Assembly: GCA_964016885.1 (NCBI GenBank)
Contig: OZ024744.1
Span: forward strand, 33,232,001 to 33,296,000
Direction of reading: 5' to 3'
DNA length: 64,000 nucleotides
From: Eledone cirrhosa
Lineage: Eukaryota
Shown: positions 2,368 to 62,930 of the stretch, piece after piece
How the letters are laid out: each line of letters begins with the position of its first letter
How positions within the stretch are numbered: the first letter of the stretch is position 1
Notes under the pieces: model-generated
The model's database searches: none
Told to the model about the DNA's origin: nothing
What the model saw: only the letters and a program-made list of their open reading frames with translations
Program-made: the position numbers and the translations under genes

Positions 2368-3090
2368 CTAAGAATAATGAGTTCTAAACTCAAGCAGTCC
2401 TTTACAATGAAATAGCTCAAAGAAAGAAATATTTCTGAGCCGTGTAATACAAGTTAATATAAATTAATATATATGATAAAACACAATACCAACATATAAG
2501 TGTTTGTATTGTAAATGACTAAGTTAGCTAGATTGAAAAATACTAATTATAATAATACAGTTTGCCTGTCTCGATTTAAAATAATAAATCATTAAAAACA
2601 AACGATATTGGCAAATGGCCGTGGTACTTAGACAAATTTAAATTTCAAAATCAAACCTGTTCCGTAGATAAGTTTAAACTTCAAAATCCAAATAAGTTTC
2701 GAGATGAAAAAGTGAAAGAATACCCCGTTCAGCTCTCCTCAGTAAGTACCCTGAACAATTGGTATGCTTCACTTCAAAATATTTAAAAAGACTGTTTAAC
2801 GCACATGGTTTTCCAGTTTCTAGCTGCCGCATACTCGTTCTGGTATAAATAACAGCCGTTTATATGGGGCTAAAGTTAGCTCTACATAAGCTCTATTTAA
2901 ATTTGTCTAAGTACCACGTCCATTGCCAATATCGTTTGTTTTTAATGATTTATTATTTTAAATCGAGACAGGCAAACTGTATTATTATAATTAGTATTTT
3001 TCAATCTAGCTAACTTAGTCATTTACAATACAAACACTTATATGTTGGTATTTGTATTTTATCATATATATTAATTTATATTAACTTGTA
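2368..3090 (-). mobile_element. Fold-back PLE-terminus element in (TA)n
   Basis: Inverted arms 2448-2643 / 2895-3090, tail 2368-2447 with GCTC..GAGC stem; homologous copy at 21037-21437. Confidence 0.75.
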
Positions 3091-3168
3091 TATATATATA
3101 TATATATATATATATATATATATATATATATATATATATATATATATATATATATATATATATATATA

Positions 3169-4457
3169 TATTCCTTTGTTATATTCCAATAATTGATGAT
3201 ATTACCGGATTCATATGGAACCCGGTCATTGAAATGATCATAGTATAATAAACCTTTCAAGGATTTACACCAGTCCATATGAATCCGGTGATATCATCAG
3301 GTATTGGAATATAACAAAGGAATATGTAAAAAACCATGGGTCCGAAAAATCAGAGACAGAGACAGATAGGACGACTGACCAACTAGCTTCTCGGCCAGTC
3401 GCCCTCAAAGCTAATGAATATCTGGTGAGGGGGCGAAGGCTTATAATGCACTACCACCACTCCGTCAAAGAAGAAGGGGAAGAAAGACAGGGAGAAAGAA
3501 GTGTAGTGTAATGGTCATACTACATTCATGCTAGAAAATGCTGCGAAAAAATGCTACCCCAAAGAATCTATAATTTATAATGGGTGTCTGTATGGTCTAA
3601 TGTGTGAACCGAAGATTGAACGTTAAACTTATGTTGCGATTTATAGGATGAAATTAAATTAAATTAAATTAAAAATATTAAATTTCAAAATAATAAATTG
3701 AAAAATAAATTATTAGAGAATTAAAGATTAAGGTAGCGAGATTTATTTATTTAATGAACTTACGGAAAGAGTCTTACATGAAAACATTTATCTCGATAAC
3801 ATATTAGGATGGGATATAGAGTAAAGATTTCGATTGGGAATCCCAGCCAGCACACCCCCCACAATGAGTCAGCCAGTCTCAAGTGGTATCGTCCAGCGAA
3901 AGAAATGGAAATTAATTTTTCCGAGTACTTTAGGAACGTAGCTACCTTAGGCTCCGGGAGCGCGAGTGGGAACTCCACAATTTCGACAGGCCATCGTCTA
4001 TACCAAACGAATATTATTAAATCACGCATGAGGGGTTTATTTACGTGCCAGTAGAGGCATGATACAGCTAGTAGTTATGCCTCAACCTGGAGTTTGTAGG
4101 TACATGTATAATGTGGCGGCCAAAACAGGCGGCGCGGTGGAACCGGGGCAAAGCAACCCGCTCCGAGTAATTTCGTTTACCGAAAGAGGAGAAACTTATT
4201 TTTCCGAGCACTCAAGGAAGGCTGAACTCTCCGAGTGCCCAGCGCGCAGCCGGGAAAAAGCCACCACACAAGTCGAAGGTAGCAACCCAATGAAAAGTGC
4301 AAATAGACCTAAATTATTTTAAAGCCCCGGTTAGACCGGGTTATAAGTAATGGGGTTCTTAGGTGGGTACTCTTGAGTACTCTTCACAATATTACACCAG
4401 GATTGACCATACGGAATGACCAGTTCTATCCAGTGGTGAACCAACAAACCTGAAGAT
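3169..4457 (-). mobile_element. Hammerhead-bearing fold-back (3169-3323) plus about 1.1 kb unidentified body, bounded by (TA)n
   Basis: Arms 3169-3219 / 3274-3323; consensus of the arms gives atac-CTGATGA-stem II-GAAA-TGATCA-TA-gtat; related 3' end at 20942-21005; body has no recognisable ORF. Confidence 0.55.
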
Positions 4458-4718
4458 ATATATATATATATATATATATGTGTGTGTGTATATATATATA
4501 TATATATATAAATATATATATATATGTATATATATATGTATATATATATGTATATATATATATATGTATATATATTCTAATAAATATTTGCTCTACGGTT
4601 CTTATATATTTGATATATATTTATCCTTATCGAGCCCTCTTTGGATTTTAGTCTTCAAATTTATTATTATTACTATGTGAATATATATATATATATATAT
4701 ATATATATATATATATAT

Positions 4719-5328
4719 AGTGGTGGAACACTGGAAGGTAATATCCGTAGTGGTAGAGCAATCAGTCCAAGGGACGAGTTAGGTAGAGGTGGTTACACAA
4801 CAGTTAGTTCACCACACCGAGAACATTTGTTTCACCTTAGCGGATCCTCAGCTCGGAATGGGCATGGTTATAGGAACAGGAAGGACAACCGTACGAACGC
4901 GCATGCATAGAAACCCGGTCACTTCACACAGGCAATGCTAGACTGCGTGCTAGATGTGTAAGGGAGATAACTGCGAAAGTCCGAAAAGTTTTTAGGTTGA
5001 AAATAAAATTACAAAGAATCAGTCCGGAGCCTTGTAGTTATGCAATAGATGTTTGGTGACGTGTGGACAACATGTGAAAAATTCACTTCTCGTGTTTAGG
5101 CAATCACTATTGCGTAATCTCTTTAGAATAGTTATTCGTTCGTCAATACATAAGCCACACGTCGGATTTCCCCTTGCGTATGGCTTGAAGTTAGTGATGG
5201 CTTTCCATTGAATGGAGTAGTCTATACTTGACTCCTTGAGGGACCATACGTGGATCGCGAGTTTCGTAGATGAACGTCTGTCCGGGTACCTGAAGGTAGA
5301 CTGGTGGTTTAGGAAACGTTCCTTGAAC
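4719..5328 (-). mobile_element. 5'-truncated Penelope-like element (GIY-YIG C-terminus, 3' UTR, hammerhead, tail)
   Basis: ORF 5019-5328: [45 protein letters not shown], similar to the EN C-terminus of the 12109-13595 protein; TA flanks. Confidence 0.9.
4817..4856 (-). ncRNA. Minimal type I hammerhead ribozyme
   Basis: ccgag-CTGAGGA-tccgctaaggt-GAAA-caaatg-TT-ctcgg; sister copies (20458-20541, 43684-43722) have palindromic CAATTG in stem III. Confidence 0.85.
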
Positions 5329-5624
5329 ATATATATATATATATATATATATATATATATATATATATATATATATATATATATAAATATATACATATAT
5401 ATATATATATATATATATATATATATATATATATATATATATATATATATATATATATATATATATATATATATATATATATGTGTGTGTGTGTGTGTGT
5501 GTGTGTATATGTATATATATATATATATATATATATATATATATATATATATATATATATATATATATATATATATATATATATATATATGATATTTATA
5601 AAACAGTATTTATTTTATTATATA

Positions 5625-60319: not shown

Positions 60320-61007
60320 TTTAATCTGTTATTTTAATAAATATATATATATATATATATATATATATATATATATATATATATATATATATATATATAT
60401 ATGTATTATATATATATATGTGTGTGTATATATATATATATATATGTTATATATATATATATATATATATATATATATATATATATATATATATATATAT
60501 ATATATATATATATTGTATTATATTATATTATATTATATTATATTATATTATATATTATATTATATATATATATATTATATATTATATATATATATATGT
60601 ATTATATATATATATGTATGTGTGTATATATATATATATATGTATATATATATATATATATATATATATATATATATATATATATATATATATATATATA
60701 TATTATATATATTATATATTATATATATGTGTGTGTATATATTTATGTGTGTGTATATATATATGTATATGCATATATATATATATATATATATATATAT
60801 GTGTGTGTGTGTATGTGGGGGGTGAGTGTATATATACAAACACACAAACACGCACATACACACACATACACACACATACACGCACACATATATATATATA
60901 CATATACACACATATATATATATATGTACATATATATATATGTATGTATGTATATATATATGTATACTTTCTATACCTTTCATTTATAGATATATATATA
61001 GATATAT

Positions 61008-61185
61008 ATAACAAAGGAATTGTGGTAAGGAACAAAATGGACCATAACGCACCAGAGTACTCAATACTTAGGGTAGAAGAGTGGGAAATGGGAAAAAGTA
61101 TGACCCCGACGGCAGAACTCGAGCCGTTTCAGAAATACCCGTCGAAACGGCTTGAGCTCTACCGTCGGGGTTATACTTTTTCCTA
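61008..61185. mobile_element. Fold-back of the Hydra-like PLE 3' end
   Basis: Minus tail plus short inverted arms; ends tttccta. Confidence 0.82.
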
Positions 61186-61192
61186 TATATAT

Positions 61193-61708
61193 ACATAAAT
61201 ATTAAAACAATGAAATTAAACAAAAAAAAATGTTAATTCATAGTAAAACTCATTATTTTACGATCGTTTCTGGAGGGTAGTTCCCCGTATGTCCATTCTA
61301 TTATTGGTCTATATAAAATATATTACAAAATATCATAGTAAGAAAAGATACATACGTCTTCACTACCCGCCGTCTTCAGAAATAATGATTATTTCTGAAG
61401 ACGGCGGGTAGTGAAGACGTATGTATCTTTTCTTACTATGATATTTTGTAATATATTTTATATAGACCAATAATAGAATGGACATACGGGGAACTACCCC
61501 CCAGAAACGATCGTAAAATAATGAGTTTTACTATGAATTAACCGTTTTTTGTTTAATTTCATTGTTTTAATATTTGTACTTTTGACTCTGTATCCAATGA
61601 ATTATATCGTTGAAAATTTTGTATTTTAAACTTTGCTGCACGACATCTTCTACATACGGGTAATATTGAGTTCTTCATACGGTTTAGACCCTACCATTGA
61701 TTGGTAGA
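61193..61708 (+). mobile_element. Fold-back with a long-stem-II hammerhead
   Basis: Arms 61193-61386 / 61388-61578; attattt-CTGAAGA(61395)-~100 nt stem II-GAAA(61504)-CGATCG-TA-aaataat; tail ACTC(61585)..GAGT(61668). Confidence 0.87.
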
Positions 61709-62519
61709 TATATGTATGTATATATATATATATATATATATATATATATATATATATATATATATATATATATATATATATATATATATATATAATATAT
61801 ATATATATATATATATATATATATATATATATATATTATATATATATATATATATATATATATATATATATATATATATACATATACACATGTGTATATA
61901 CGTACATATATATGCATATAAAACTATTAATATAAAAGCCTCATGTATTTGTCCGTCACACACTAGAAAGATGACTGAAGAAGGAAGTGGTGTAGCGTCT
62001 AACATTCGCTACACCTGTGTGTGCATATGTATAGCGAATTGACTACACACATTGGCTTTTTAATGTTATGTTAATGTTTGTGTGTGTGTTTGTGTAAATT
62101 ATATTTATATATAATATTTGTGAGTGTATATATGTTTGTGTGTGTTTATTTAGAAGGATACATAGACAATAGAATTACAAACACACACGAATCTACACAT
62201 ACATATATAGACAGACACACTTAGAAAATATAATTATTACATACACACACATCTATGTAATGACTGAGGAAGGGGGGGTGAGAAATCATAGGAGTCCAGC
62301 GTCCTAAGATTCGTTAAACTTGTGTGTGTGTGTATGTGTAGGGATTTGGCTAGACCGTGTGTTTGTATGTTTGTATCACTTGTGTAAGTGAGCGTGAAGG
62401 AACCAACTAACCAACAAACAAGCAAACATTTCTTTTTTATACTATGCATAGATATTACAATTAGACGTAATTTTTGACGGCACAGAGCCAGACAGTATAT
62501 ATATATATATATATAAACA

Positions 62520-62930
62520 TATTATTCAAAATGTTAATAAATGAAAAATACTCTCATAATCAAAATACGTATATATTTTATTATACATATTTCAAAGGTA
62601 CAATGGTGTTTAAGTACGTTTTCATCAGACAAAATATATGATTTGATAAGTGACATACCGCTACTGTTTTGATTTTTCAATTCCAAATTATCAAAACCGT
62701 AGCGGTATGTCACTTATCATATATTTTGTCTGATGAAAACGTACTTAAACACCATAGTACCTTTGAAATATGTATAATAAAATATACATTTTGATTATGA
62801 GAGTATTTTTCATTTGTTAACATTTTGAATAATATTAAAAACTCCAGGAAAATCTATTGTTGAGTGCTTCTAATCTATTGTAATATTGTATTCGTTGATT
62901 AATCAATGAACCATATTAATCTTTGGGTAT
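62520..62930 (+). mobile_element. Hammerhead fold-back
   Basis: Arms about 62520-62673 / 62690-62834; CTGATGA 62730, GAAA 62765, TATGTA-TA-ataaaa; tail ACTC(62841)..GAGT(62862). Confidence 0.88.

Follow-up and report, generated by a model that had tools for sequence, protein, structure and literature searches.

The stretch of DNA analysed here, a window of 64,000 nt from the 3.0-Gb genome of Eledone cirrhosa (GCA_964016885.1, OZ024744.1, positions 33,232,001–33,296,000), is rich in insertions in which an inverted arm, a second arm and a tail lie, in that order, between two (TA)n tracts. As judged from their sequences, these are Penelope-like elements (PLEs) of the Hydra clade and are all related to one another, and their ends lie close to copies of a small motif predicted to fold as a bulged hairpin, which is the subject of this report. 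Among the families present, family B is young: 150 of the matches listed for its window open reading frame (ORF; 12109–13644) are at 99–100%. The full-length form of the family, at locus L121, consists of tandem units of 3531 bp with a 717-residue ORF.

The L121 protein combines, in a single ORF, a reverse transcriptase (RT) with, at its C terminus, an endonuclease (EN) of the GIY-YIG type, an architecture shared by its homologues and typical of Hydra elements. The RWK motif of that clade appears as RWR in family B and as RWK or RWR in the homologues, and DKT replaces DKG. Read directly, the L121 protein shows the CxCX5C linker, one Cys within the GIY-YIG core, and the C-terminal CxxC and CxH motifs, with CCHH missing. 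Hammerhead cores occur in the pseudo-long terminal repeat, 5′ of the first hairpin, and the junctions are with (TA)n. Protein motifs, hammerhead and (TA)n target are thus those described for the Hydra clade (Craig et al. 2021, PMC8557442), though the family B unit of 3531 bp is longer than the <3 kb general in that clade. The ten ORF-bearing families of this genome are 33–70% identical in protein sequence and form one clade with a support of 0.999 in a FastTree tree of 50 rows, which was anchored on family B, rooted at its midpoint and built without named Hydra references and without the low-coverage loci L132 and L145. An earlier sequence-only reading of the window had taken the families that carry the hairpin to be unrelated, a view that has to be given up, as every ORF found belongs to the Hydra clade. 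Families E, G and I, for which no ORF is in hand, are placed there from anatomy only. Pfam returned no family at E 0.001 for the truncated RT/EN stretch at 12112–13644, so elements of this kind can escape domain scans.

On the sense strand the motif reads RCUC-Y(stem-loop)R-UH-GAGY, in which a 4-bp helix carries a 2-nt bulge, U-(U/C/A), on its 3′ side. The Y-R pair above the bulge opens a variable stem-loop, and the two halves of the motif are separated by 6 to 106 nt. The flank that follows GAGY is mostly ACU or GCU, and the 3′ half together with this flank comes near to an 8-bp palindrome. The sequence-only reading had listed 14 RCTC/GAGY pairs as a motif at the start of tails. All 14 exist with matched outer bases, and 13 of them are the near hairpin of a PLE family; the other, an ACTC/GAGT pair at 30645/30682 (30645..30685, plus strand), sits within a tail, away from the arm end, and was rejected as a chance match, with GAGT kept in only 1/10 related copies elsewhere. 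The 13 genuine pairs fall into about nine families and are not 13 independent cases. They had been described as following the short arm, but it may also be the longer arm that stops at the near hairpin. The bulge, the covarying pair above it, the ACU/GCU flank and a second copy of the motif past the far end of the tail had all been overlooked.

The motif is present twice between the hammerhead and the start of the ORF, in the order hammerhead, hairpin 1, about 50–170 nt, hairpin 2, ATG. In the full-length unit of family B, hairpin 1 is of the A-U type, while hairpin 2 is of the G-C type and starts 6–7 nt past the far end of the tail. The family B hairpin 2 was taken as a prediction before other families were checked; sought past the far tail end, it was then found in families A3, A2, E, N, I, D, H, F1, F2, K and M. 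What has been called the tail is the segment that separates hairpin 1 from hairpin 2; in the homologous loci from other sources (below), the copies are spaced by 52–83 nt in 22 cases. Hairpin 2 ends 15–43 nt 5′ of the ATG in 29/29 measured cases, a placement that would suit hairpins serving translation control or packaging, with the insertion ends set by something else nearby. However, families E and I keep both hairpins although no ORF was seen in them, and the distance to the insertion end (below) tracks the hairpin even though the surrounding sequences differ between families. We therefore regard a role in translation or packaging as highly improbable.

The pairing was examined with a covariance model built from an equal-length seed of ten sequences; a MAFFT alignment of 62 instances, which contained no loop gaps, was discarded. 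In the window the model gave 13 matches at E < 0.1, all at tail starts. In the model-fitted alignment 97.6% of cells are paired, compared with 23–55% in slid controls. The strongest covariation signal is the pair above the bulge, which is C-G in 59 rows and U-A in 37 with zero mismatches. The outer pair in the same alignment is G-C in 90 rows, A-U in four and U-A in one; mismatches of the outer pair were found in 5/81. On the RT tree, with the pair states of this genome entered by hand, the fewest Watson–Crick compensatory changes for hairpin 1 were three at the outer pair and seven at the pair above the bulge; for hairpin 2, two compensatory changes each were needed at the outer pair, the third pair and the pair above the bulge. 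A nearest-partner rule had mis-anchored 11/69 rows, which were dropped downstream, four of them being re-entered by hand for the tree-change counts. The switch of the outer pair between A-U and G-C, which had drawn the attention of the sequence-only reading, is real and repeated on the tree, but it is mostly confined to the lineage of this genome; outside it, the outer pair is G-C in 54/69 anchored rows. The broader proposal of a conserved, covarying sense-strand structure 3′ of the hammerhead and tied to the insertion ends is supported by the covariance model, the tree changes and the junction counts given below.

Enrichment over chance was measured at arm ends that had been located independently of the motif; the sequence covered was the window, 400 kb of its neighbourhood and twenty 10-kb samples (664 kb in total). 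These held 31 clusters of asymmetric inverted insertions, 17 of which have a TA-terminated tail of 40–200 nt. The descriptor of the sequence-only reading, RCTC at most 17 nt from the arm end with a matched GAGY, was found in 11/17 tailed clusters, against 2.4% for positions drawn at random (n = 20,000) and 1.2% for shuffled tails (n = 5,100), which answers its own check against random frequency in its favour. With the bulge rule added, the figures were 10/17, 0.5% and 0.2%. Among clusters not detected in the window, the descriptor was present in 5/10, and with the bulge rule in 4/10.

The motif also extends beyond this genome. The covariance model gave 104 matches in 58 loci. In metagenome and genome contigs, 96 loci carry homologous ORFs at 35–46% identity; 66 of these reach the N-terminus, 50 have at least 125 nt upstream, and 42 are non-redundant. 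At least one motif copy lies at most 190 nt from the ATG in 35/42 of these upstream regions and two copies in 24/42, against 7.4% and 0.2% in shuffles and 3.6% and 0 in ORF windows (n = 365). The antisense control of the upstream regions gave 48% with at least one copy and 2% with two, the motif being partly self-complementary. Two of the seven non-carriers (L184 and L203) are variants. By eye, the motif can be seen in published Hydra consensus sequences (PMC8557442): Hydra-1_Ajap holds two copies at its start, Hydra-2_Amil and Hydra-2_Ajap have one copy each in the 3′ tail, and Hydra-1_Crog has a compensated variant. Three 9-mers searched in the supplement of that paper gave six matches, four at the ends of Hydra elements and two inside other records. 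No relative was found in the viral contigs searched. As a separate observation, 18 contigs in prokaryote genome assemblies (L200–L217) hold Hydra PLE ORFs with (TA)n flanks and are most likely animal host DNA.

The insertion ends follow the two hairpins closely. At family B loci picked by ORF, 50/52 internal 3′ ends fall on two positions, 25 on each, and 58 5′ ends are scattered along the 3.5-kb unit; which of the arms is longer varies, and their inner ends often overlap by a few bases. Across eight families, 165/187 TA junctions begin 2–10 nt before a hairpin, where about 6% would be expected; the 187 are what remain of 225 junctions after removal of 38 that overlapped TA runs inside references. 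At these junctions the TA run mostly starts 6 or 8 nt before the R of the motif and the last matching base lies 3 or 5 nt before it, so that element and target share 2–4 nt. Over 11 families, 294/318 (TA)n junctions begin 1–12 nt 5′ of a motif copy. Loci from other sources contributed nine junctions in six families, all 0–6 nt before a motif copy, the reference L206 having been dropped because it contains a TA run (48/58 rows). In these loci from other sources, TAT or ATA is present at −10 to −3 in 43/58 instances (mean 28 and maximum 41 in 2000 shuffles). The two kinds of end are also combined in a regular way: 70 of 72 head-to-head insertions join a near and a far end, two join near to near and none far to far, although only 36 mixed insertions would be expected if the ends were independent. 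In family B alone, where the loci were mostly picked by ORF, the near-plus-far combination occurs in 25/26.

Fixed 3′ ends with scattered 5′ ends are the established priming signature of elements that move by target-primed reverse transcription (TPRT), and here they indicate that synthesis is primed at the fixed ends, with sense RNA as the template. Each hairpin probably docks the RT/EN so that DNA synthesis starts just upstream, leaving insertions that end 5′ of either copy. The sequence data are best read as showing a hairpin that the RT/EN protein recognises. As expected of an initiation stem-loop, it is conserved, covaries and keeps a constant distance to the start of the cDNA, with that start deduced from genomic 3′ ends. 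The near-plus-far rule is simplest to explain if two protomers sit simultaneously on the two hairpins of a single RNA. Whether this is a programmed double priming, in which the two hairpins of each RNA load a dimer of the telomerase-related RT/EN and each protomer aligns one cut (TA)n end on an internal template of 2–4 nt, seems to us an evenly balanced question. In the mechanism that we regard as likely, two protomers would bind the two hairpins of one sense RNA, and their endonucleases would cut both strands of the (TA)n tract. Each DNA 3′ end would pair with UAU(A) 3–8 nt 5′ of a hairpin and prime there, in what may be called twin internal priming. The two cDNAs would grow inward, halt at variable points and join by microhomology, and the tail would correspond to the RNA between the two start sites.

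The same ends could arise if each hairpin caused the RNA to be cut or terminated a few bases 5′ of it, producing two RNA 3′ ends for ordinary end-primed TPRT. A ruler-type nuclease would account for the fixed distance from end to hairpin equally well, and RNA-seq read ends at start sites have been reported (PMC11167929). Yet RNAs cut separately would be chosen independently, which is at odds with one end of each kind in 70/72 insertions, and priming by the Poseidon element is internal, on RNA with a longer 3′ end (PMC11167929). Rfam, self-cleaving ribozymes included, gave no relevant match for the window at the gathering threshold or for 15 homologous loci at E up to 1. A twister-sister-like ribozyme was rejected, since its core has 5x6 internal loops and not a one-sided 2-nt bulge (PMC11620745). 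RNA cleavage thus appears an unlikely origin of the ends.

Alternatively, the motif might act in DNA, as a single-stranded hairpin or a duplex site read by the GIY-YIG EN when it resolves an insertion intermediate. The tail, given as 30–40 bp in PMC8557442 and measuring about 60–165 nt in this genome, has been ascribed to EN-mediated resolution in that paper, and PMC11167929 cites work in which recognition by the D. virilis EN depended on the tail. G-T wobbles form in DNA too, and the near-palindrome of the 3′ half and its flank would fit a site in DNA. A plain duplex site, however, is excluded by motif halves that stand 6 to 106 nt apart with paired inserts between them, and the combination of scattered 5′ and fixed 3′ ends is again the signature of priming at the fixed end. 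We find action at the DNA level rather doubtful.

Docking on the sense RNA also bears on the other function that had been offered for the stem, that of a template boundary. The upper stems contain 11 G-U pairs against one A-C on the sense strand, which favours that strand. On sense RNA, each hairpin lies 3′ of its start, outside the copied region, and is left uncopied from that start; it can therefore position the enzyme but cannot be a boundary of the telomerase type, and of the pair of functions suggested by the sequence-only reading it is recognition that the data favour. A true telomerase-like boundary that stops the RT would require an antisense RNA as template, in which the stem would be 5′ of the copied region, as in telomerase. 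An antisense template has been proposed for PLEs (PMC3846280), and whole-motif energies slightly favour the antisense strand. Against this, besides the G-U excess, the hammerhead is on the sense strand, sense RNA was the template in vitro (PMC11167929), and an RT bound for hairpin 2 would have to read through an equally good hairpin 1 in half of the arms. An antisense boundary accordingly has little to recommend it.

Several observations weigh against hairpin-directed initiation as we propose it. Many of the loci behind the counts of 294/318 and 70/72 were fetched by tail queries. Family M has fixed near ends without a canonical hairpin, cluster 5 (a 211-bp unit) lacks one at either end, a pattern search for a second hairpin in family G found none, and hairpin 2 of family N is a compensated variant without an upper stem. 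Poseidon_Ac, an element of another clade, has one AC-rich stem-loop without RCUC/GAGY in Fig. S1B of PMC11167929, and its start is reported not to be homologous to the target, unlike the overlap of 2–4 nt with (TA)n seen here. The structure counts rest on the model-fitted alignment and are inflated by related sequences. When the family B region is folded as a whole, the best fold contains neither hairpin and its stability does not exceed that of shuffles (z −0.03). In full context, the lower stem has a probability >0.5 in 25/29 hairpin-1 but only 18/29 hairpin-2 copies, and near zero in three long-insert or variant copies. Finally, the energy of the whole motif is lower on the antisense strand in 53/91 cases and on the sense strand in 26.

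Priming by both target strands is known from L1 twin priming, in which microhomology joins the cDNAs and an inversion results. There the second start is opportunistic and the arms do not overlap, whereas here both starts would be fixed by RNA motifs and the same sequence would be copied twice. The 3′ stem-loops of long and short interspersed nuclear elements (LINEs and SINEs), the R2 3′ untranslated region and the epsilon element of hepatitis B virus are cis-acting, often bulged stem-loops that the RT recognises and that set the start of synthesis. All are single elements; LINE and R2 synthesis starts at the RNA 3′ end and copies the structure, and epsilon templates from its bulge. The hairpin described here differs in lying 3′ of the start, in being left uncopied and in being duplicated. 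The template boundary element of telomerase is a helix 5′ of the template that stops synthesis. It has in common with the PLE hairpin a helix next to an internal template, a related RT and, as proposed here, short primer–template pairing.

The in vitro work on Poseidon_Ac (Frangieh et al. 2024, PMC11167929) found that the RT starts internally at two sites that bound the tail, with which the twin priming proposed here for Hydra elements agrees. The Poseidon protein depends on RNA lying 3′ of the starts, it cuts both DNA strands and extends them, a dimer is predicted, and hammerhead cleavage is not required (PMC11167929). The available portion of that paper describes no repeated motif and no conservation across families, and the portion of PMC8557442 at hand makes no mention of a hairpin, of its duplication or of a link to insertion ends.

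The features of the window are collected in Table 1, and some further observations concern the same families. The frame of family B is open for 784 codons, from 5′ of hairpin 1 through both hairpins (L121:2256–4607), with the first ATG after hairpin 2; this is either chance or a sign of a non-AUG start. The hammerhead core of family B is a variant of the U3-A8 type (window:10450–10555, by eye and fold), and that of family I has C at the second core position (window:56484–56530). Hammerhead-bearing inverted repeats also occur at window:18011–18854 and 39018–39492; on a quick look, their ends departed from the hairpin rule. The 2-kb inverted arms of family I (window:46866–56570) are 99.95% identical, with no Hydra ORF detected, and a LINE with APE and RT (48961–54175) sits between them. 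By eye, the two families whose fixed ends lack the canonical hairpin (L071:4270–4330, L321 and neighbours of the window, clusters 1 and 5) both show in the same place a small hairpin with C opposite YY-C, perhaps a variant of the motif or the signal of another PLE clade. A perfect palindrome of 414 bp (window:30550–30963), centred on a (TA)n tract and arranged tail to tail, has relatives of only 76–87% identity and is either a recent duplication or an assembly artefact. A tRNA-like Rfam match at threshold (window:33710–33767), with a second copy of 80% at 24679–24787, is possibly a SINE.

Table 1. Hairpins and associated features of Hydra-clade elements in the window (positions from the first letter of the window)
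Feature	Position	Strand	Remarks
Family B ORF, 5′-truncated (RT and C-terminal GIY-YIG)	12109..13644	-	99% to the full-length 717-residue ORF in L121; fixes the sense strand
Family B hairpin 1 (A-U)	10564..10587	+	Tail 10556–10636 ends 6–7 nt before the hairpin 2 position of full-length units
Family B hairpin 1	13970..13993	+	Absent from the sequence-only list; the tailed arm is the short arm here
Family B hairpin 1	38399..38436	-	Absent from the sequence-only list; model match including flanks
Family B hairpin 1	61053..61090	-	Absent from the sequence-only list; model match including flanks
Family B-like hairpin 1	43485..43522	-	Weak model match, E 1.1
Family A2-type hairpin 1 (A-U)	8086..8106	+	In model seed
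Family A2-type hairpin 1	21796..21830	+	5′ half decayed
Family A2 hammerhead core	22142..22183	+	107 nt 5′ of hairpin 1
Family A2 hairpin 1 (A-U)	22249..22268	+	Other copies: hairpin 2 (G-C) past tail end, then Hydra ORF start
Family A2-type hairpin 1 (A-U)	36975..36994	+	
Family A2 hairpin 1	42044..42076	+	3′ half decayed
Family A3 hairpin 1 (A-U)	42487..42511	+	Other copies: hairpin 2 (G-C) past tail end
Family A3-type hairpin 1 (A-U)	62841..62865	+	
Family D hairpin 1 (A-U)	61585..61671	+	Long insert; in a full-length relative, hairpin 2 holds an insert of 106 nt
Family E hairpin 1 (G-C)	2415..2440	-	Sense is the minus strand
Family E hairpin 1 (G-C)	21362..21387	+	Other copies: hairpin 2 present, with no ORF start seen 3′ of it
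Family F hairpin 1 (G-C)	20750..20770	-	Sense is the minus strand; full-length copies have hairpin 2
Family K hairpin 1	20400..20419	-	Decayed, 1-nt bulge type; absent from the sequence-only list
Family G hairpin 1 (G-C)	36296..36355	+	Second copy sought, not found
Family H hairpin 1 (G-C)	38886..38931	+	A neighbouring full-length copy has a Hydra ORF and a variant form of hairpin 2
Family I hairpin 1 (G-C)	56575..56608	+	Lies where the 2-kb inverted arms end; L298 carries hairpin 2; Hydra ORF not detected

Our literature search, outside which lay Pyatkov 2004, Arkhipova 2006, Lunse 2017 and the Repbase reports, found no description of the motif. Cis-acting stem-loops for an RT are known in kind; what appears to be new is a duplicated one, shared across a clade, at the two ends of PLE insertions. 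The origin of the PLE tail and of the inverted insertions has been named an open problem (PMC8557442), and one in vitro study has reported two internal start sites but, in the portion at hand, no general signal (PMC11167929). The motif, of about 20 nt, present across the clade and at a fixed distance from both ends, indicates exact mutations for testing, and provides a rule for annotating the ends of Hydra elements and of their non-autonomous partners. Here an RT related to that of telomerase likely primes on a short stretch of internal template that an RNA helix holds in position. If it is programmed as set out above, double priming would explain the tail, the head-to-head inversions and the preference for microsatellites by one rule, and the hairpin would serve as a transferable tag for starting internal target-primed reverse transcription.

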